Of a DNA stretch of 64,000 nucleotides, positions 22,701 to 63,067 are shown piece by piece. The stretch comes from Clostridia bacterium (lineage in GTDB: Bacteria > Bacillota > Clostridia > Oscillospirales > CAG-272). The first letter of the stretch is position 1. The number at the start of each line of letters is the position of its first letter. The notes under the pieces are model-generated. The model did no database searches and was not told where the DNA came from. It saw only the letters and a program-made list of their open reading frames with translations. The position numbers and the translations under genes were made by a program. The DNA lies in assembly GCA_017453245.1 (NCBI GenBank), contig JAFTKM010000008.1, positions 19,017 to 83,016 on the forward strand, in the 5' to 3' direction.

Positions 22701-23665
22701 TGCTTGCACTCGACGTCATCGGGCGTGTAGTCAGGGTCAGCCTCGCCGCAGTTTACGCAGTAGCCGTCAGAATAGCTGTGTCCCTTTGCGCTCTCGCCGG
22801 GCTCTTCACAGAGCTCGCAGTAGCCGTCCTCGGTACAGGTGGGATCTGTCCACACGTGCTCGCACTCGGGAACAAAGTCGGGATCGGGCTCGCCGCAGTT
22901 TACGCAGTAGCCGTCAGAATAGCTGTGTCCCTTTGCGCTCTCACCGGGAGCTTTACAGAGCTCACAGTAGCCGTCCTCGGTACAGGTGGGATCTGTCCAC
23001 ACGTGCTCGCACTCGGGAACAAAGTCGGGATCGGGCTCGCCGCAGTTTACACAGTAGCCGTCAGAATAGCTGTGCCCCTTTGCGCTCTCACCGAGAGCTT
23101 TACAGAGCTCGCAGTAGCCGTCCTCGGTACAGGTGGGATCTACCCACACGTGCTCGCAGCCGGGTGTGAAGTCGGGATCGAGCTCACCGCAGTTTACGCA
23201 ATAGCCGTCAGCATAGCTGTGTCCGTTAGCTGTGCCACGTGTAGCGGAGCAGTTACGGCAGGTCTCGGGAGTTGTGCATCCTGCCTTCTGCCAGGTGTGT
23301 CCCATCGCCTCACCGTATGTAAAGCTTTCGGTATCAGCCTCACCGCACTCGCAGGAATAGTAGTATTCCGCAGCAGAGGTACAGGTAGCCGAGCTCTTGA
23401 GATATTTGTCGCTCGCTACCTCCTCGGAGTAATCGTGAGTATGTGAATCGGTCGGCTTGTCGTCCGGTTTTTCTCCGGAATCGTCGCCGGGCTTATCTCC
23501 CGTATCATCCCCAGGTGTGTCATCGGTGTTGTCGGGGTTTTCGTCATTTCCGCCGTTAAGAATTTGACCGATATTAAGGTTTCCGTTTTCATCGCAGGAA
23601 GCGAAGGTGAAAACAAGGCTTAATACCATAACGGAAATAAGCAAAAGGTAGAGTAACTTTTTCAT
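19706..23665 (-). CDS. Large secreted lipoprotein (1319 aa) with ~7 Cys-rich (CxxC-containing) 49-aa modules in the N-terminal third and an uncharacterised C-terminal region
   Basis: Signal plus lipobox VLSLVFTFASCDENG and an acidic linker. Repeated module GHSYSDGYCVNCGEPDPDFVPECEHVWTDPTCTEDGYCELCKAPGESAK. Confidence 0.85.
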   Translation of the reverse strand: MKKLLYLLLISVMVLSLVFTFASCDENGNLNIGQILNGGNDENPDNTDDTPGDDTGDKPGDDSGEKPDDKPTDSHTHDYSEEVASDKYLKSSATCTSAAEYYYSCECGEADTESFTYGEAMGHTWQKAGCTTPETCRNCSATRGTANGHSYADGYCVNCGELDPDFTPGCEHVWVDPTCTEDGYCELCKALGESAKGHSYSDGYCVNCGEPDPDFVPECEHVWTDPTCTEDGYCELCKAPGESAKGHSYSDGYCVNCGEPDPDFVPECEHVWTDPTCTEDGYCELCEEPGESAKGHSYSDGYCVNCGEADPDYTPDDVECKHNYEMKVEDATCITEGIIYYTCTECGDRYYENTGLGDHELDDAGYCIHCSGYFGEVVDPDYCYHENRTEATCTEDSVCYACGTILVAAYGHQYIDGSCVNCGDPDPDYSTECEHVWADPTCTEDGYCELCKIIGEYAYGHDYNSEGYCNRCSESNPDYYPEYVYFLIYLFEYYTYDESGYYEATVNYDKGDMYTGGITEKRNTLANLLSERYGTTLGESNYVWYANGEELTEDYLIRVDDKLVAIQKGHPEDFSSTVTISIPSLGIEEVHSFPCPVSYYELVDEFYVKHAIDSNIYTIVDNNSTIDSLAYGEINVSYIECQKHASAYLVTDSGTKMLASEVYSATQFPSVAEFLGGIGINVDDYVIFNYGSVIEDLNTTSYSTLFLIEKSEVEEEITVNVIYVMDEYTTLEGTITLTSPTSIEYFAYQDVYTEDEGYFSLPGYSPEYLYRVGNTDYHPELESWYGFIYKDCTVEIIPCYVAYVELYDSITGNYIYEALVFDSVPNGAQIAEFIDADLTMYTINVEGMQYDYDTFVGTCFEFRAFSVFFTPNQVRVTVSVFDENGYEYTEEFTGDICFDLAQFGYPTEGVYVWTLYYPDGSCEEIESLDITLYYDPAFSETDYDRSYTSYKIIGICQTFRMSVSTENYYGEKFVNKNDGLTVGEILTIYFGLEFDNYDWNYNSYEYIDGFSKDYVPYASLELWGTDNRPCVAVHTNGNDYKIYHTANLTLAEVIALVNEEHGLELDLDGYTWNVDGSTVTDPDAEVATEGNSCYIYVSAFNEVKVFFYTEVGLVGDYESPYVYTRDGEWSTPELDSQYTDFTYGIMYFSGEWEYRSEDGAITINSVEDLFALKLTAVSLNAKFEVDFDRLCGLYLTDNQVIRIDENTLSFYNIYSGGLFEKHTDLEYEVSLSGMSFAINAGDFCFEGMWFQECYKMTAEDIRIVVLDPWGSISTCYTVEDYNEYVQSYNVDSVNDYDGNPTEEFTYGNVYFVYTSEIVE
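22735..23224 (-). repeat. In-gene tandem repeat, 147-nt period, ~3.3 near-identical copies (Cys-rich modules)
   Basis: The aa 148-310 modules are nearly identical. The antisense ORF 22786..23169 shows the same 49-codon periodicity (SSRPRYRWDLSTRARTREQSRDRARRSL...). Confidence 0.85.
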
Positions 23666-52597: not shown

Positions 52598-52636
52598 TAT
52601 AAAAGCTGTCGTGAATGACGTGCGACAGCTTTTTTG
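52598..52636. terminator. Bidirectional intrinsic terminator closing the cassette array
   Basis: AAAAGCTGTCG / CGACAGCTTTTTTG. On the minus strand it is followed by TTTTATATTTT. Confidence 0.7.
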
Positions 52637-52776
52637 TGGGTTTATGTATACTTTGATTAGCATTATGCTAAATTAAGATGATTTTGCGGCACGTGATAAC
52701 AACCGCGTTATGAGATTCATCAAAAGGAAATCTTATATTTGCTCCTCTCTGAAATCAAAACTTGTTTGTTAATTGT

Positions 52777-53124
52777 TCTATAGCACACCGGGGCGAAAAA
52801 GTAAAGGACGGTTTGATTACTCGGGGCCGCCCTGCTTTTAACCTTCCCCAGCGAAGCGAGTTGGGGAAGGGGGACCACCTTTGGTGGTGGATGAGGTTGA
52901 ATTGATGCTCACGCATCATAAATTGCACGTTGTGCATGAATTGGCTACACCATGAATTGACGGCAAAGTCGTCACTATGGTGAAGTTTTTGCCTACGGCA
53001 AAAGTGAAGTTGTGCGAAGCACAGTGAAGTTTGAGGCGTTGCCTCAAGTGAAGTTGATTTTGCTCGGTGCAAAATCAGTTATTCGGTAAGAGACCTCATG
53101 GCTTTGGCAATACAGTCGGGGTAA
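52777..53124 (-). repeat. Cassette junction repeat copy 5 (cotJC-tail mimic 53079-53117, word-hairpin array 52842-53075, promoter block 52777-52835); followed by no ORF
   Basis: The mimic encodes DCIAKAMRSLTE-stop on the minus strand. The array is parsed in the findings. TTTACT, 17 nt, TATAGA. Confidence 0.8.
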
Positions 53125-53571
53125 CTAATTATTCAATAGATGATTTATCAACTCTTCGAGTCCGTCGGAATCAACGTTATAACCCCTCTTGCCGGTTTCG
53201 CTTTCTTCTGTTGCTTTATCCACCCACCCCGAATATGAAAATTGTAGCTCATACGTGGGGTAATAAAAAACAAGAACATTCTCTCTAGGCCAGTTTGGCT
53301 CCATAACTATCAGTTTTTCAAATTTCATATTAGCTATTTCTGATATTGCATAATCACATTCTTCGGCACTTAATGTTTTGACAATTTCGGTATTGAATTG
53401 ATATTCCGGTTCATAAATAGTAGAATAAGTGACAATCTCCGCCTTTACTAAATCGGCGCTTAATTCATCGTAAGTATAAGTTACGTAAGAGCCTGTACAT
53501 GATGCTGTGTTGAATAAAACGCAAAATACAATAAGCAAAACTAGTACGCACTTCACATTGTTATTATTCAT
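53125..53571 (-). CDS. Cassette D cargo: small lipoprotein (148 aa), hypothetical
   Basis: MNNNNVKCVLVLLIVFCVLFNTASCTGS (signal plus Cys). GGAGG lies 8 nt upstream of the ATG at 53571. AT-rich. Confidence 0.7.
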   Translation of the reverse strand: MNNNNVKCVLVLLIVFCVLFNTASCTGSYVTYTYDELSADLVKAEIVTYSTIYEPEYQFNTEIVKTLSAEECDYAISEIANMKFEKLIVMEPNWPRENVLVFYYPTYELQFSYSGWVDKATEESETGKRGYNVDSDGLEELINHLLNN

Positions 53572-53915
53572 AGTTGTTCCCTCCATAAAAAACTTATAGA
53601 ATGATGCCACATTTATTATACCACACTCACACGAAAAAGTAAAGGACGATTTGATTTCTCAAACCGCCCTATATGATGAATTGATGCTCACGCATCATGA
53701 ATTGCACGATGCGCATGAATTGGCTACGCCATGAATTGACGGCAGAGCCGTCACTATGGTGAAGTTTTTGCCTATGGCAAAAGTGAAGTTGTGCGAAGCA
53801 CAGTGAAGTTTGAGGCGTTGCCTCAAGTGAAGTTGCTTTTGCTTCTTGCAAAATCAGTTATTCGGTAAGAGACCTCGTAGCTTCGGTAATACAGTCAACA
53901 TAAAGCATTATTCAA
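53572..53915 (-). repeat. Cassette junction repeat copy 4 (mimic 53858-53896, array 53676-53855, promoter 53615-53643)
   Basis: The mimic encodes DCITEATRSLTE-stop. Promoter is TTTACT, 17 nt, TGgTATAAT. Confidence 0.85.
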
Positions 53916-54773
53916 TCACTTTAATTTTTCTTTACAATAACGCAAAAGCTCTTTGGTTAAGCAACAGAACGATTCACCTTTCACCTGTACCTTTCCATTG
54001 GAATCTATGAACTCACAACAAAATTCAATATAGTAGCACAACTTTATACTATTATCCAACAGGACTCTAATTGGTGAGCCAATTTGGACAAGTTCTTTTT
54101 TTCTCCAAAGATTTCGGTCAATGAAAATGCCTTTATCATCATAGTCAGAATTACTCGCAATTTGCTCTAATGGCTCAAATGAGAAGTATATTCCAAGATA
54201 TGTTGAATTTTCATTAGATAAAAACATTGTGAGTTCTACAAAATCAACTTGCTTAAAGCATCTTTTCCCAAATTCATTCCAATACCAAAGATATATTAAC
54301 AGTTGCTTTTGGGAAAGAAATTCAGTCAATCCAGATAAATCTTCTTTTTCCCAAAATCCACCGATCGTATATGTTTTGTATTTTATTTTTGGTTGTTCGC
54401 AATAAGTAATTGCCTGTTCAAACAACTGTGACGAGGGCGAATAATCAATATCAATTCTGCCAAATGTTTTGGTCTTGCCACATTCCGTGCATTGTGAGAC
54501 AAGCTCAACGGAAATAAAATCATCTGTTTCTTTTCTTCGCAGGTAATCAAAACGAACCTTAAAGAAATCATTTTTACAGGAACACTTTTGCTTGCTTGGA
54601 TGCTTTTCTTGAATTAAATCATACCAATATTCTTTACTATCAAGAATAAAATAGGATTTATCAGAACGAGATATAAGAATACCTGCATTTTCATCACGAA
54701 TATATCTGATTTGAAACTCATCTTCTCCTATAGATGACACAATTTCTTTTTGTATTTTTCTTTCGTCAAGCAT
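53916..54773 (-). CDS. Cassette C cargo: hypothetical protein (285 aa) with a CxC...CxxC putative zinc-ribbon
   Basis: KQKCSCKNDFF...SQCTECGKTK. AAAGGAA RBS. A hand count of one 60-nt line (54001-54060) gives 17 G+C. Confidence 0.7.
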   Translation of the reverse strand: MLDERKIQKEIVSSIGEDEFQIRYIRDENAGILISRSDKSYFILDSKEYWYDLIQEKHPSKQKCSCKNDFFKVRFDYLRRKETDDFISVELVSQCTECGKTKTFGRIDIDYSPSSQLFEQAITYCEQPKIKYKTYTIGGFWEKEDLSGLTEFLSQKQLLIYLWYWNEFGKRCFKQVDFVELTMFLSNENSTYLGIYFSFEPLEQIASNSDYDDKGIFIDRNLWRKKELVQIGSPIRVLLDNSIKLCYYIEFCCEFIDSNGKVQVKGESFCCLTKELLRYCKEKLK

Positions 54774-55018
54774 ATGGCAATTCCTTTCTTTTGTTATACA
54801 ATGTCAAACGATGAATTGAGCCGTTGGCTCATGAATTGCACAAAGTGCATGAATTGGCTACGCCATGAATTGACGGCTATGCCGTCGTTGTGGACACCTC
54901 ATCCACCACTTCGCGGTCGACCCCCTTCTCCCACTGGAGAAGGCTGAGGTTATTCGGTCAAAGACCTCATAGCTTCGGCAATACAGTCAGAGTGAAGTAT
55001 TCTTTTTAAATACGGTTC
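54774..55018 (-). repeat. Cassette junction repeat copy 3 (mimic 54950-54988, short array 54808-54949); lacks the conserved promoter block
   Basis: The mimic encodes DCIAEAMRSLTE-stop. About 55 nt (CCTTCTCCCACTGGAGAAGG hairpin through CATAGCTTCG) is near-identical to the true cotJC end at 57021-57075. Confidence 0.85.
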
Positions 55019-55522
55019 TCATTTGCCACAACAGCTATTACAAGCACTATCGGGTTCTTTACAATGATACCAACAATAATCCTGGCTAATTCGAGACGCA
55101 TATTTTGAAGCCTGAATTTCAAGAGAACGATTGTTTTTTTCCTTATCATCATAAAAATACCATTGAAAATAATGTGTCAGTTCATGACTTAGCGAATCGT
55201 ATATTTGGCATAAGCTTTGTTGCGTAGGAATGTATATCTGCGGATATGCTCGTTCGCCACTTTCATGATTTGAGAAAAACATCCCATAGCTATATCCCCC
55301 TTTGTGCTTACGAAATTTTTCTTGATTGCAAAAATAAACATTACATCTTATCGGGAAGTAAAATTCTTTTCTTAAATAGCGTACAAAATTACATATACAT
55401 TTCTTGGTTTTAGGGTCAATGTCTGATGCAAAATGAAGAGAAAGATTTGATTTAGGTGCTGAATCTGCATAAAATGCCAAGTTTTCCTCTGTTTTTGTTA
55501 CCCACAAAAAGTTATTTGCCAT
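55019..55522 (-). CDS. Cassette B cargo: hypothetical HExxH protein (167 aa), possible small zinc metallopeptidase, Cys-rich C-terminus
   Basis: LSHELTHYFQW and C-terminal CWYHCKEPDSACNSCCGK. ATG at 55522 has GGAGGT 8 nt upstream. Confidence 0.7.
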   Translation of the reverse strand: MANNFLWVTKTEENLAFYADSAPKSNLSLHFASDIDPKTKKCICNFVRYLRKEFYFPIRCNVYFCNQEKFRKHKGGYSYGMFFSNHESGERAYPQIYIPTQQSLCQIYDSLSHELTHYFQWYFYDDKEKNNRSLEIQASKYASRISQDYCWYHCKEPDSACNSCCGK

Positions 55523-55895
55523 TTTTAAGCACCTCCATTTCAAATCGACTCTATGATAATTATACCACACACCTACCAAAAAGTAAAGGACGATTTGATC
55601 TCTAAACCGCCCTATTGAATGAATTGAGCCGTTGGCTCATGAATTGCACGTTGTGCATGAATTGGCTACGCCATGAATTGACGGCTATGCCGGCGTTGTG
55701 GACACCTCACCCACCGTCTGCGACGTCCCCCCTCCCCAAAGGGGAGTGTAAATGCCACCTTCGCAAAGCGAAGATTTCATCGCTTTAGCGATTTCATCCG
55801 ACCTCGTCGGATTTATTTCGTCTTGGACGGATTTAATTGCGAAGCCTACTCCGTAAGGCTTCGCATGGCTTCGCCAATGCAGTCGACATGAAGTA
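55523..55895 (-). repeat. Cassette junction repeat copy 2 (recoded mimic 55846-55884, array 55616-55845 with ATTTCAT-type words, promoter 55559-55587)
   Basis: The mimic encodes VDCIGEAMRSLTE-stop with different codons for RSLTE-stop. Promoter is TTTACT, 17 nt, TGgTATAAT. Confidence 0.85.
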
Positions 55896-56669
55896 CTATT
55901 TATTGTTTTCCACCAACTTTTTTATGTAATCGCTTCTGCTTCCGTCCCAATGACACAATTCGCATTTGCCGTCCTTAAATTGATGCTTACACTTTTCATA
56001 ACCATAAAGAATATGTGCACACTCGGGACAAAGCGACATCATTTGCGATTTAGTTTTAATAAACTTGCTTCCGCATTCATCACATTCGTGACAGATTGAG
56101 CCAAGAGTTTCTTTCATTTTTTCTCTATCATAATCTAAAAAATAACCTTCAAGTTTTGGATAAAACTCAATATATTTATTCTCAGAAAAGAAAACAATAT
56201 CACAACCCCTATCGTCATAGACTGAAAATATAAATTGATCATCAAATGAAACAAAACTGACCAAAGGTGAATATTGATTATCTATTTGTTTTTTTATTAT
56301 TCTTTCAAAAACTGCGAAATCAACATCAAATGAAATATATCTTTTTACTGTTTCAACATCTTCGTCTATTAGATCTATACTATGTAGCACATCCATATCA
56401 AGATTAATTACTTCGTCAATGGTTATTCCAAAATTGCCAACTTCGCATGCTTTGCCGTCAATAAAATACTCTAAATAAAATGCCGCATCTATTTTTTTGT
56501 TTTCAAATAAAATGTTAGCAATTTTCATTGCTCTCTCTAAAGCGTTATCAAAATATTCTTTGCCTTGACCAATTCCCAACTCGCATCTTAAAGCTAATTT
56601 ATTACTGTAAAACCAGGGCTGCGAGTAATCGAAAGTGGGGTCAAGTATTTTTTCACGCATATTGTTCAT
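55896..56669 (-). CDS. Cassette A cargo: hypothetical protein (257 aa), DUF3885-like N-terminal region (tentative) plus C-terminal double zinc-ribbon
   Basis: SVYDDRGCDIVFF, and CHECDECGSKF...CPECAHILYGYEKCKHQFKDGKCELCHW. AT-rich. Confidence 0.7.
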   Translation of the reverse strand: MNNMREKILDPTFDYSQPWFYSNKLALRCELGIGQGKEYFDNALERAMKIANILFENKKIDAAFYLEYFIDGKACEVGNFGITIDEVINLDMDVLHSIDLIDEDVETVKRYISFDVDFAVFERIIKKQIDNQYSPLVSFVSFDDQFIFSVYDDRGCDIVFFSENKYIEFYPKLEGYFLDYDREKMKETLGSICHECDECGSKFIKTKSQMMSLCPECAHILYGYEKCKHQFKDGKCELCHWDGSRSDYIKKLVENNK

Positions 56670-57045
56670 GTTACTTGCTCTCTTTTAGAATATAATATTG
56701 TTTTTTACATTATACCACAACCCACATGAAAAAACAAGGACGATTTGACTAATCAAACCGCTAATCAAACCGCCCTTGTGGATGAATTGAGCCGTTGGCT
56801 CATGAATTGCACAGAGTGCATGAATTGGCTACGCCATGAATTGACGGCTGTGCCGTCGTTGTGGTGAAGTTTGCGTTTCACGCAAGTGAAGTTGTGCGAA
56901 GCACAGTGAAGTTGATTGTAGCCTTCTCCTGAGGGAGAAGGGGGACCACTTGTGGTGGATGAGGAGTTGGCTATAATTACAACAAAAGTGACACCTCATC
57001 CGCCTCACTTCGTTCAGCACCTTCTCCCACTGGAGAAGGCTTAGG
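56670..57045 (-). repeat. Cassette junction repeat copy 1 (abuts the true cotJC stop; array 56781-57045, promoter 56709-56737)
   Basis: Same ATGAATT and GTGAAGTT word-hairpin grammar. Promoter is TTGTTT, 17 nt, TGgTATAAT. Carries a duplicated GGTTTGATTAG unit. Confidence 0.8.
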
Positions 57046-57594
57046 CTATTCGGTCAAAGACCTCATAGCTTCGCCAAAGCGCTGGTAGTGGACAATCTCG
57101 CGCTGGCGGAGGAATTTGATAGCGTCGTTTACGTCGGGGTCGTCGCTAAGGCGGAGGATATTATCGTAGGTGACTCTCGCCTTCTGCTCTGCCGCGAGGT
57201 CCTCGTTGAGGTCGGAGAGCGCGTCTCCCTTTGAGGATATTGCAAACGCGTTGAAGGGCTCGCCCGATGCCGCCGAGGGGAAGACACCGTTGCCGTGGCC
57301 GATGTAATACTTATCAAGGCCGCCGGCAGTTATCTGCTCGGGGGTGAGGTTGCGTGTGAGCTGATAGATGATACTGCCCACCATCTCGGCATGCCCGAGC
57401 TCCTCATTGCCGATGTCCGTTAAGGTAGCGATAATCTTGCCCTTAGGCATAGTGAATCTCTGATTCAGGTATCTTGTCGCGGCGCCGAGCTCACCGTCGG
57501 GACCTCCGAGGGCGTCTATAATAAGACTTGCTAAGCGCGCGTTGGGGTTCTTAATCTTTACGGGGTACTGAAGCTTTTTCTCATATATCCACAT
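57046..57594 (-). CDS. cotJC: Spore coat protein CotJC (manganese-catalase-family)
   Basis: MWIYEKKLQYPVKIKNPNARLA...GELGAATRYLNQRF...EELGHAEM...REIVHYQRFGEAMRSLTE. Close to my recollection of B. subtilis CotJC. Confidence 0.9.
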   Translation of the reverse strand: MWIYEKKLQYPVKIKNPNARLASLIIDALGGPDGELGAATRYLNQRFTMPKGKIIATLTDIGNEELGHAEMVGSIIYQLTRNLTPEQITAGGLDKYYIGHGNGVFPSAASGEPFNAFAISSKGDALSDLNEDLAAEQKARVTYDNILRLSDDPDVNDAIKFLRQREIVHYQRFGEAMRSLTE

Positions 57595-59517: not shown

Positions 59518-59725
59518 GTGTTCTCCGTCAAGAAGAACACACTATAACTAAGTTTGCCCTTTCGGGCAAGTGCAGTTGTCTTCGACAGTGAAGTTCACTT
59601 CGTGAGTGAAGTTTTGCCTGTCGGCGAAGTGATGGGCAAACTTAACTACACTGCGAGCATTTGCGAGCAACTTCACTGTGCTTAGCACAACTTCACTTTC
59701 GCTTTTGCGAAAACTTCACCAGCAG
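59518..59725. repeat. Word-hairpin array with AGTGAAGTT (x2) followed by its reverse complement AACTTCACT/C (x3)
   Basis: AGTGAAGTT at 59587-59595 and 59605-59613. AACTTCACT at 59669-59677 and 59689-59697, and AACTTCACC at 59712-59720. Each pair is separated by a 9-15-nt mini-hairpin. Confidence 0.8.
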
Positions 59726-59774
59726 AAAAAGAGCAGACATGCGAGATTTTTCATCTTACATGTCTGCTCTTTCT
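59726..59774. terminator. Bidirectional terminator (mainly for the minus-strand heparinase-like gene)
   Basis: AGAGCAGACATG (59730-59741) pairs with CATGTCTGCTCT (59759-59770). On the minus strand it is followed by TTTTTCT. Confidence 0.7.
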
Positions 59775-61858: not shown

Positions 61859-62154
61859 GTGACGATGATTCTTTACTCCGTAAAGAGATATATTCGCCCT
61901 GAGGCGAGTGATATGTTGCTTTTCGCAACGTGATATTATTTCGCCGTGCGAAATAGTGATATGCTCGCTACAAGCGAGCGTTAAAAGAAAAAGCAACCAG
62001 CAGGTGACGATGATTCTTTACTCCGTAAAGATCGATATTCGCCTTACGGCGATCGATATGCGCTTCGCGCTCGATATATTGGCTTCGCCAATTCTATATG
62101 TGCTCTCACGAGCACGATAAAAGAAGAAAGCAACCATCTACCGGTTGCTTTTCT
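61859..62154. repeat. Two tandem word-hairpin arrays, each opened by GTGACGATGATT-CTTTACtccGTAAAG; words GTGATAT (array 1) and TCGATAT (array 2)
   Basis: Array 1 spans 61859-61979 and array 2 spans 62004-62116. Each is followed by an AAAAGAAnAAAGCAACC... terminator-like motif. Full parse in the findings. Confidence 0.8.
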
Positions 62155-62695: not shown

Positions 62696-63067
62696 TTACT
62701 TAACTTCAACTTCTGCGCCTGCAGCCTTGAGGTCTGCAGCGAGCTTCTCAGCCTCTTCCTTAGAGATGCCTTCCTTGATGGTCTTGGGAGCAGACTCAAC
62801 AAGATCCTTAGCATCCTTAAGACCAAGACCGCAAACGTCCTTAACAAGCTTGATAACGTTAAGCTTGGATGCGCCTGCGCTGGTAAGAACAACGTCAAAC
62901 TCGGTCTTCTCCTCAACAACGGGAGCTGCTGCTGCAACTGCGCCAACTGCTGCTACGGGAGCTGCGGATACACCGAACTCCTCCTCAAGAGCCTTAACGA
63001 GATCAGCAAGTTCAAGAATAGTAAGACCCTTTACAAGGTCAAGAATCTGGGTAGACTTTTCGTTCAT
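62696..63067 (-). CDS. rplL: 50S ribosomal protein L7/L12
   Basis: [36 protein letters not shown]...[56 protein letters not shown]. Confidence 0.95.

Follow-up and report, generated by a model that had tools for sequence, protein, structure and literature searches.

How does a conserved gene come to be followed by a row of unrelated genes, each of them trailed by a copy of that gene's own coding end? The question is raised by the interval between cotJC and an nfnA-like gene in a 64,000-nt stretch of DNA from an uncultured gut Clostridia bacterium (assembly GCA_017453245.1, contig JAFTKM010000008.1, positions 19,017 to 83,016; hereafter the window). Along its minus strand, from 57075 to 52637, five units succeed each other, each opening with a 30-nt core and cotJC tail, and four of the five carry one AT-rich open reading frame (ORF); this repetition is genuine, and chance falls far short of explaining it. 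The reading best supported for the cotJC–nfnA interval is a build-up of minimal gene cassettes into an array, and we lean towards serial accretion of these cassettes at an att-like core in the cotJC tail, with each cassette rebuilding the gene end.

Anatomy of the array behind cotJC

A first-pass annotation, made from the letters of the window alone, had described a unit recurring five times behind cotJC, four unrelated cargo ORFs, strikingly AT-rich cargo and an empty fifth unit running into a terminator, and all of this proved sound: the tails, the repeated words and the ORFs were recovered; an ORF check and family searches confirmed four unrelated cargo genes on one strand (56669–55896, 55522–55019, 54773–53916 and 53571–53125); GC by sliding window is 0.27–0.36 in the cargo against 0.52–0.59 in the flanks; and the fifth head holds no ORF and is followed by a terminator at 52636–52598. 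Units measure about 0.8–1.2 kb in the window, and up to a few kb in those arrays of relatives that carry large leucine-rich-repeat (LRR) cargo. With the non-coding part ahead of each ORF called the head, and the copied gene end the mimic, the minus strand reads from cotJC onwards:

57046–57594, minus: cotJC, the anchor gene, 182 aa, Pfam Mn_catalase (5.9e-52).
57046–57075, minus: native core GGCGAAGCTATG (57075–57064) and tail AGG TCT TTG ACC GAA TAG (57063–57046), the proposed attL-like joint, exactly where similarity between cotJC and the junctions begins.
56700–57045, minus: head 1, with hairpins, a AACTTCAC array (56913–56864), a CAATTCATG array (56843–56782), a terminator-like hairpin (56779–56734) and an extended -10 box TGTGGTATAAT (56719–56709).
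55896–56669, minus: cargo 1 (c1), 257 aa, DUF3885 (Pfam, 2.2e-16) with a C-terminal zinc ribbon; GC 0.32 (0.27–0.32 in sliding windows).
55846–55900, minus: leader 1 (55900–55876) and core/mimic 1 (55875–55846), with the type-B tail CGA AGC CTT ACG GAG TAG, fully synonymous with the native one.
55523–55845, minus: head 2, with a ATGAAATC array (55839–55769; Gut-1-like, Rfam 30.7 bits), hairpins, a CAATTCATG array (55680–55619), a terminator hairpin (55613–55587) and a -10 box (55569–55559).
55019–55522, minus: cargo 2 (c2), 167 aa, with an HELTH motif and no known family.
54950–55004, minus: leader 2 and core/mimic 2, with a type-A tail, 28 of 30 nt as in the native copy.
54774–54949, minus: head 3, truncated, with a hairpin and a CAATTCATG array (54872–54811), lacking the terminator-promoter block.
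53916–54773, minus: cargo 3 (c3), 285 aa, of a 127-member family of hypothetical or unnamed proteins; no fold match.
53858–53912, minus: leader 3 and core/mimic 3, with one nonsynonymous change, M to T.
53572–53857, minus: head 4, with a AACTTCAC array, a CAATTCATG array, a terminator hairpin (53670–53643) and a -10 box (53625–53615); fold z-score -5.5.
53125–53571, minus: cargo 4, 148 aa, of no known family, its N-terminus resembling a signal peptide or a lipoprotein.
53079–53124, minus: leader 4 (short) and core/mimic 4, with one nonsynonymous change, E to K.
52637–53078, minus: head 5, without cargo, with two arrays, hairpins, a hairpin with a T-run (52832–52798), a degenerate -10 box TGTGCTATAGA (52787–52777) and 140 nt lacking an ORF.
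52598–52636, minus: intrinsic terminator closing the array, followed by nfnA-like (52456–51593) and gltD-like genes.

The 3' end of cotJC, GGCGAAGCTATGAGGTCTTTGACCGAATAG (GGC GAA GCT ATG AGG TCT TTG ACC GAA TAG), is near-copied, stop codon included, at 55875–55846, 54979–54950, 53887–53858 and 53108–53079, one copy directly behind each ORF, and these together with the native end make five direct repeats of core and tail that bound the units; throughout the 64 kb, a 26-nt tail probe with up to three mismatches matches three of the tails only (chance expectation 0). The copy had been taken in the first-pass annotation to be about 39 nt long and the insertion to lie exactly at the stop codon, and on both points the picture has to be redrawn: only 30 nt derive from cotJC, the preceding 9–25 nt being a leader that belongs to the cassette, and the joint falls within coding sequence, at GSCGAAGCYATG, 18 nt short of the stop codon. 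The leader, of about 25 nt (AAATACTTCAYGTTGACTGTATT), ends in the core GSCGAAGCYATG; its segment GACTGYATT has four matches in the window, all of them at junctions, and in 11 junctions, taken from 6 genomes and adjoining unrelated cargo, nearly all 25 positions of the leader consensus (AAATACTTCAYGTTGACTGTATTGSCGAAGCTATG) are 70–90% or more conserved. Similarity to the cotJC end starts at the core in a table of 15 junctions and in an alignment within one relative (L127; related loci are cited by such handles), the sequence upstream being either cotJC coding sequence or leader. The first core codon is always GGN (Gly) beside cotJC and mostly GCC at internal junctions, which places the exchange in or after GAAGC.

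That the mimics are former gene ends is indicated by their codons. Between mimic and native tails, codons 2–10 show 19 synonymous and 2 nonsynonymous codon changes, the latter confined to the two distal copies of the window; because of this bias the tails must once have ended a working cotJC. The mimic follows the tail type of its host as well, as in L138, whose CotJC ends in EAMNILRDKKF and whose mimic reads KAINLLRDIKY and then stops. A collinear counterpart of unit 2 of the window, with its type-B tail and ATGAAATC array, is the native tail and head in L125, the closest relative (96% CotJC identity), and likewise in L131; the displaced tail and head of the window are thus the native ones of L125, as expected if cassette 1 entered at the core. 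The earlier suggestion that every cassette supplies a replacement gene tail is upheld by these three observations. Homologous LRR_5 cargo ends of L124 and L132 have leader and core in common and then continue with a type-A tail and head in L124 and with a type-B one in L132; the linkage between cargo end and head breaks at the core.

Several further properties of tail and core were noted. The type-B tail (window 55864–55838; also in L121, L125, L131 and L132) folds as a hairpin, GCGAAGCC, 10 nt, GGCTTCGC, the loop of which contains the last codons and the stop codon, and L131 retains this hairpin via five compensatory pairs (CGTTCTT / AAGAACA). A third tail type, ending in GEAIQSG, occurs in the CotJC variants P0010 and P0025. 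The native core is palindromic, GCTTCG-G-CGAAGC, in L121, L123, L138 and L148. A joint of the Dif/Xer type was considered and dropped: by eye, only 15 of 28 positions match the Bacillus dif site, and there is no dyad symmetry.

The most regular part of the heads is a block composed of the hairpin GGGCGG..CCGTCC and a T-run, scored as terminator-like, followed by an extended -10 box TGTGGTATAAT (TGnTATAAT). A conserved promoter block had been assigned to all units; it is intact in units 1, 2 and 4, and it combines a terminator hairpin with the -10 box, whereas it is degenerate in unit 5 and absent from unit 3. It is proposed that each cargo gene would be shielded from sporulation-specific cotJ transcription by its predicted terminator and driven by its own predicted housekeeping-type promoter.

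The other component of the heads consists of arrays in which a constant word alternates with short variable hairpins; they were located by a custom word-plus-hairpin scan, as Tandem Repeats Finder misses them. The word CAATTCATG has 14 copies in the window, all between 52935 and 56843 (0.4 expected), and AACTTCAC has 16, of which 11 fall in the array (1.75 expected). Out of 56 inter-word segments 41 are distinct, and their mean stem is 4.0 pairs against 2.2 in shuffles; G-U pairs, as an indicator of the hairpin strand, are only slightly more frequent on the sense strand, too little to decide the matter. Matches to the Gut-1 motif (RF01706) within the cassette array reach 30.7 and 24.8 bits, where 50 would be needed to pass the gathering score. 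Elsewhere in the window word-hairpin arrays recur at 59545–59754 and 61908–62077: the former holds two Gut-1-like arrays (GTGAAGTT / AACTTCAC) in inverted orientation between convergent cupin and heparinase-like genes, with the best Gut-1 match (46.2 bits, E 7.6e-7, at 59545–59617, also below the gathering score); the latter holds arrays with ATATCAC / ATATCGA words upstream of a heparinase-like gene. In species-representative genomes, three spaced CAATTCATG words are found at 119 loci at least, mostly of uncultured Clostridia and at ordinary intergenic positions. A spread of the word arrays across phyla was also considered and rejected: the non-Clostridia matches inspected are plain tandem repeats without hairpins, except for one Synergistes contig. 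The first-pass annotation had put the multi-hairpin arrays at the junctions in place of attC sites; they cannot be the equivalent of an att site, because they are optional (the junctions of L138 have none) and similar arrays stand at ordinary Clostridia gene ends, in more than 100 loci.

As for the surroundings, cotJA/cotJB lie upstream of cotJC (CotJB match 1.2e-28, Pfam), and the array is flanked in the window by cotJABC, DUF4416 and MazG-like genes on one side and by nfnA/gltD-like genes on the other. At 22742–23224 a 147-nt unit is repeated 3.3 times with 93% identity within a very large ORF that has a signal-peptide or lipoprotein-like start.

Turnover of the interval among relatives

Close homologs of CotJC are many, and relatives with 75–96% CotJC identity keep the grammar of the junctions with entirely different cargo. 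In L124 (92%), cotJC is followed by a type-A tail, an array, a terminator-promoter block and a large LRR_5 gene (called as two ORFs), and then by leader, core, tail, array, terminator-promoter block, a second LRR_5 gene, a terminator and nfnA; L127 (91%) has three cassettes encoding proteins of 465 aa (LRR_5), 135 aa and 253 aa (TMEM164); L125 (96%) and L131 (92%) have other cargo after type-B tails; and in L138 (75%) a gene of 117 aa comes first, followed by a c3 homolog. As in the window, the arrays of L124, L127 and L138 consist of co-oriented single ORFs with unrelated sequences. Cargo-free sites occur too, L121 having only an array after cotJC and L123 only a plain terminator. Since the cargo of relatives differs at the same junctions, the content of the interval changes from lineage to lineage under an unchanged junction grammar.

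Comparison of presence, absence and order of cassettes, as the first-pass annotation had proposed, thus revealed cargo turnover and cargo-free sites between lineages, and no polymorphism within the species of the window; likewise, of its serial integration at the cotJC end, the gain and loss of modules at the tail and the match of the displaced tail to L125 stand, while every assembly found of the species itself has the same four genes in the same order. Contigs often stop right after cotJC, and window cassettes are also seen as 1-kb contigs broken in the repeats; L132, a single 1.3-kb contig, was found by a leader-plus-tail scan of Joint Genome Institute (JGI) metagenomes. In one 874-nt contig with identical CotJC (L130, 720–874), cotJC is joined to a head carrying both single-nucleotide polymorphisms that mark the head of the third cassette of L127; this reflects either a strain without the first two cassettes or a switch of assembly path, and is the only hint of a within-species variant.

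The word arrays at ordinary gene ends, both in Clostridia metagenome-assembled genomes (MAGs) and elsewhere in the window, bring up the view that there are no cassettes at all, the junction modules being a spreading intergenic repeat (similar to repetitive extragenic palindromes, to miniature inverted-repeat transposable elements or to Gut-1) that invaded the gaps of a resident gene cluster; the parallel between c3 divergence and host divergence, described below, agrees with it. Such an invasion would however predict constant cargo and variable junctions, the opposite of what relatives show; moreover, the junctions hold former cotJC coding ends, and the word arrays themselves are optional. The first-pass annotation had named junction repeats scattered genome-wide as a possible refutation of its own idea; the word arrays are indeed not confined to this locus, but in the 64 kb leader and tail occur at these junctions only. 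The comparison of relatives has already largely refuted repeat invasion, which we regard as very improbable.

What the cassettes carry is mostly unclassifiable. Known families among the cargo of the arrays examined comprise DUF3885 with a zinc ribbon, BspA-type LRR_5 proteins and TMEM164, and most cargo belongs to none; several proteins have, by eye, a signal peptide or a lipoprotein-like start. From NCBIfam and PDB sequence searches came only weak zinc-ribbon matches, those of c1. The 84 homologs of c2 are all unnamed or hypothetical, and so few of the 127 members of the c3 family found in the search have a name that "hypothetical" is all they are called; in both families many members come from contigs no longer than a few kb. 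For c3, the AlphaFold model (pLDDT 91, confident) has no fold match in the PDB, with TM-scores around 0.1; no cargo matches PADLOC, and no Pfam Imm family was found in it. In L149 (4800–9300), a host of lower GC, a c3 homolog (56% identity) follows a SIR2_2 gene, each of the two being preceded by a different junction repeat of about 250 nt; the neighbourhood includes an rve transposase and a Gabija-like gene pair, and the segment is bracketed by a duplicated His_Phos_1 gene.

Routes of entry and the case for an enzyme

Under serial accretion, a cassette would comprise, from 5' to 3', a replacement CotJC tail (nine codons and the stop), a structured 3' untranslated region (UTR) often expanded to Gut-1-like arrays, the GGGCGG..CCGTCC terminator with its T-run, the extended -10 box TGnTATAAT, an AT-rich ORF with a ribosome-binding site and a leader of about 25 nt ending in the core. 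As a circle, an intermediate that we infer, it would recombine with the identical core in cotJC, 18 nt before the stop; cotJC would then end in the tail brought by the cassette, the former tail and 3' flank being pushed behind the new cargo, and repeated rounds would stack cassettes with the newest adjoining cotJC, while displaced tails would decay. A site-specific recombinase encoded elsewhere would act on leader and core, and RecA-dependent exchange between the long junction repeats would probably add deletions and homogenise copies. Head 5, which is 91% identical to head 4 over 240 nt, is read as the displaced ancestral 3' flank of cotJC. That the c3 family takes the first place behind cotJC in L155, the second place in L138 and the third in the window would fit insertion next to cotJC. 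Directly observed are the make-up of the units from modules, the abrupt start of similarity at the core, the formerly coding tails, the turnover of cargo between lineages, the cargo-free sites and the match of the displaced tail and head to the native ones of L125.

The terminator-promoter block also occurs at a second gene. In L024, L107 and L156 it follows rpsI, where lipoprotein and small membrane-protein cassettes are found:

L024 3000–5300, L107 4900–6567 and L156 1–500: rpsI cassettes, in Clostridia MAGs.

The junctions there consist of a mimic of the rpsI end (..TCC AAG AGA TAA, SKR-stop) and a copy of the rpsI terminator, and the leader is different, with about nine CACGATAT repeats at a 10–11-nt period. 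One cassette of L107 has, by eye, a leader resembling a thiamine pyrophosphate (TPP) riboswitch. In another locus, L148 (8288–11017), an unrelated insertion (an AAA_14/DUF4143 ATPase, DUF6933 and repeated AAACGGACAA words) starts inside the same cotJC core and alters the CotJC C-terminus, giving a 203-aa form. The conserved leader, the L148 breakpoint at the same core and the parallel rpsI system favour a site-specific enzyme. A more general picture, to which we give a minority share of belief, is a hitherto undescribed, integron-like capture platform of uncultured gut Clostridia, in which a recombinase encoded in trans would insert single-gene circles of about 1 kb into a 12-nt core within the final codons of conserved genes (cotJC here, rpsI in another lineage, each with its own leader type), the cassettes rebuilding the tail and bringing terminator and promoter.

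The heads bear both on accretion at the core and on a different route. Between genomes they are 68–85% identical, when third-codon positions of cotJC are only 46–50% identical (69% in the closest pair), and this conservation counts in favour of accretion; within a genome they are 91–93% identical. Even in L155, with a CotJC identity of 57%, the terminator-promoter block can be made out. Either selection acts on the non-coding parts of the junctions or lineages exchange them, and within a genome their copies are homogenised. The heads are, furthermore, mosaics of common sub-modules, and near-identical heads precede unrelated cargo in L127. It could be, then, that homologous recombination alone is at work, the junction modules of 150–350 nt serving as portable homology and cassettes looping out and re-entering by RecA crossover, or being swapped after DNA uptake, with the left edge inherited from one founding event. 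The repeats are long and alike enough for this (as in heads 4 and 5, and at 91–93% within genomes), the mosaic heads and their indifference to cargo agree with it, no recombinase was found in anything searched, and many assemblies break in the junction repeats. Left unexplained by homologous recombination alone are the 25-nt non-coding leader, conserved across genomes with near-saturated synonymous sites; the unrelated insertion of L148, which starts at the same core; the analogous rpsI joint with a different leader; and the entry of new cargo between a constant promoter and a constant leader. We take this route to be a serious but rather unlikely explanation of the array.

Serial accretion by a site-specific enzyme, for its part, has to face a number of observations that weigh against it. 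The first-pass annotation had remarked that no recombinase is in sight, and rightly so: none was found among the window ORFs tested (ten further ORFs included), in seven cotJC-anchored arrays or two rpsI-anchored arrays whose genes were examined, or beside the rpsI array of L024. No circular, plasmid-borne or phage-borne leader-tail joint turned up in the collections searched. Dyad symmetry of the kind typical of a recombinase site is, by eye, apparently not convincing at the core. Exact-protein look-ups of CotJC, c1 and c3, made for polymorphism within the species, returned the same four-gene order only, plus short contigs broken at the repeats. The greater likeness of heads within than between genomes suggests gene conversion or local duplication over whole-cassette import; homogeneous heads within genomes, mosaic heads and the lack of a recombinase together favour the homologous route. 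Finally, the identity of c3 with its homologs (81, 64.5 and 65.5%) parallels that of CotJC (74.7, 57 and 63.6%), so that low GC is no proof of recent import, and c3, hence at least some of the cargo, may be an old resident pushed distally.

A vehicle for the cassettes was also sought and, as a phage or plasmid, rejected: one junction compared by blastn with plasmid and phage collections gave no match, and four pattern scans of IMG/VR for the leader-tail joint in viral contigs found none, returning chance matches in coding sequences together with L155 and L156, two contigs that carry chromosomal arrays, in L155 next to a prophage.

Mobile DNA is found at and near cotJC in other contexts. In L155 (4629–7054), cotJC is missing about 40 codons at its start and borders on the lysis module (amidase) of a prophage, and the terminator-promoter block and the c3 homolog come directly after this cotJC; it looks like a phage integrated inside cotJC. 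Phage integration inside other sporulation genes is known. On the minus strand of the window, at 62700–62200, the rplL stop and terminator are followed by two copies of a repeat of about 140 nt; the final ~170 nt of rplL, with the stop, are also present there as a displaced pseudo-copy, interrupted by the second repeat copy. The pseudo-copy lies 5 kb away from the array, and the genes between rplL and DUF4416 vary among relatives. The rplL region thus has the look of another hotspot, at which the end of a gene was duplicated by an insertion.

These cases bear on a third explanation, according to which ordinary integrative elements of larger size, with an integrase (phages, integrative and conjugative elements, or integrative and mobilizable elements, IMEs), targeted the cotJC 3' end in succession and each was eroded to one gene with att remnants, much as has been proposed for the origin of cis-mobilizable elements (CIMEs). 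Tandem accretion at gene 3' ends with displaced ends and integrase-less decayed elements is documented (PMC5704250, and the tycheposons discussed below), mobile DNA has entered cotJC in other lineages as well (L148 and the prophage of L155), and the displaced rplL 3' end is close by. Independent erosion, however, would not yield uniform units with the same leader, terminator and promoter set tightly round one intact ORF in at least seven cotJC arrays of several species, and integrase fragments were seen in none of the arrays examined; decay is, in our opinion, improbable.

If serial accretion at cotJC is real, its interest goes beyond this locus. To our knowledge, integrons have not been described in Clostridia-type hosts, and Gram-positive anaerobes are, as far as we know, regarded as having essentially no integron-type gene capture; cassettes that use gene tails as their anchor would close this gap and would explain part of the strain-level gene turnover, and of the assembly breaks, in abundant uncultured gut Clostridia. 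The standard leader, terminator and promoter round each ORF raise the same question as integron cassettes, namely how they are made, with sharper sequence landmarks, and the Gut-1-like hairpin arrays, orphan motifs since 2010, gain a genomic context. Were a recombinase to exist, the 12-nt core and 25-nt leader would be a testable substrate and possibly a gene-insertion tool for genetically intractable Clostridia; were the integron-like reading true, the array would be a plug-and-play store of independently expressed accessory genes. In the searchable literature we found no paper pairing cotJC with an integration site or a mobile genetic element, and no description of such a recombinase-less cassette array in a cotJC tail.

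Comparison with known systems

Small modules that lack a recombinase of their own and are moved by the host are known in the pdif modules of Acinetobacter (XerC/D) and in the minimal mobile elements of Neisseria (homologous recombination). As with these, alternative combinations of small modules lie between conserved flanks at cotJC; the differences are that no dif-like 11-6-11 site is recognisable here, that the orientation is direct and not inverted, and that the flank is a rebuilt gene tail.

The hairpin arrays have their closest counterpart in the Gut-1 RNA motif (RF01706; Weinberg et al. 2010, PMC2864571), found in gut metagenomes only and with no assigned function, with which they have in common tandem short variable hairpins separated by a constant word of the (G/A)UGAAnU type. 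They differ from it in scoring below the gathering threshold, in their other words (GUGAAGUU, AUGAAUUG and AUGAAAUC) and in their position in 3' UTRs and junctions, while Gut-1 forms free-standing small RNA genes.

Tandem accretion at gene 3' ends has been described for CIME/IME tandems, with displaced gene ends and decayed integrase-less units (PMC5704250), for the tycheposons of Prochlorococcus (bioRxiv 10.1101/2020.12.28.424599) and for the ssrA islands of Dehalococcoides (PMC3146451). Units there too are bounded by the target 3' end, the gene is rebuilt, older units are pushed distally and integrase-less units occur; those units are multi-kb, an integrase is present in at least some of them, and where it is missing the unit is an irregular product of decay. 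At cotJC, in contrast, units are single-gene, with a standard leader and, in nearly all, a terminator-promoter block, no integrase is seen in the arrays examined, and the target is a protein-coding sporulation gene. Of the marks of 3'-end accretion, target-end direct repeats, a working replacement end and both occupied and empty sites among relatives are present; a matching integrase was found neither in the window and the arrays examined nor in the viral, plasmid and phage collections searched.

The rAID-1 orphan-immunity arrays of Bacteroidales, whose repetitive intergenic sequences their authors liken to integrons (bioRxiv 10.1101/471110), resemble the cotJC array in that many small genes of skewed GC are lined up, with repetitive junctions, in gut bacteria. 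They start with a recombinase of the XerD family, lie on mobile elements and contain recognisable immunity families, whereas the cotJC array has no adjacent recombinase, is anchored in a chromosomal gene tail and carries cargo that is mostly unclassifiable, apart from such families as DUF3885, BspA-type LRR lipoproteins and TMEM164.

The comparison with integrons, made already in the first-pass annotation and here including sedentary chromosomal integrons and the integrase-less CALIN clusters, goes furthest. Common to both are co-oriented single-ORF cassettes, trimmed tightly; conserved junctions beside unrelated, compositionally odd cargo; junctions that are more alike within than between genomes; and an insertion that fits the anchor-proximal end. 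Against this, no intI gene lies next to the array, in the window or in relatives; the putative joints read GSCGAAGCYATG after a leader and not GTTRRRY/attC; units 1, 2 and 4 have their own predicted terminator and TGTGGTATAAT promoter and would not be driven from a Pc promoter; and what anchors the array, and is rebuilt by the cassette, is a housekeeping or sporulation gene at its coding end. The array would thus appear to lack three of the four defining features tested (intI, attC/GTTRRRY and Pc) and yet, with the fourth, a co-oriented array of single ORFs, to work like an integron.

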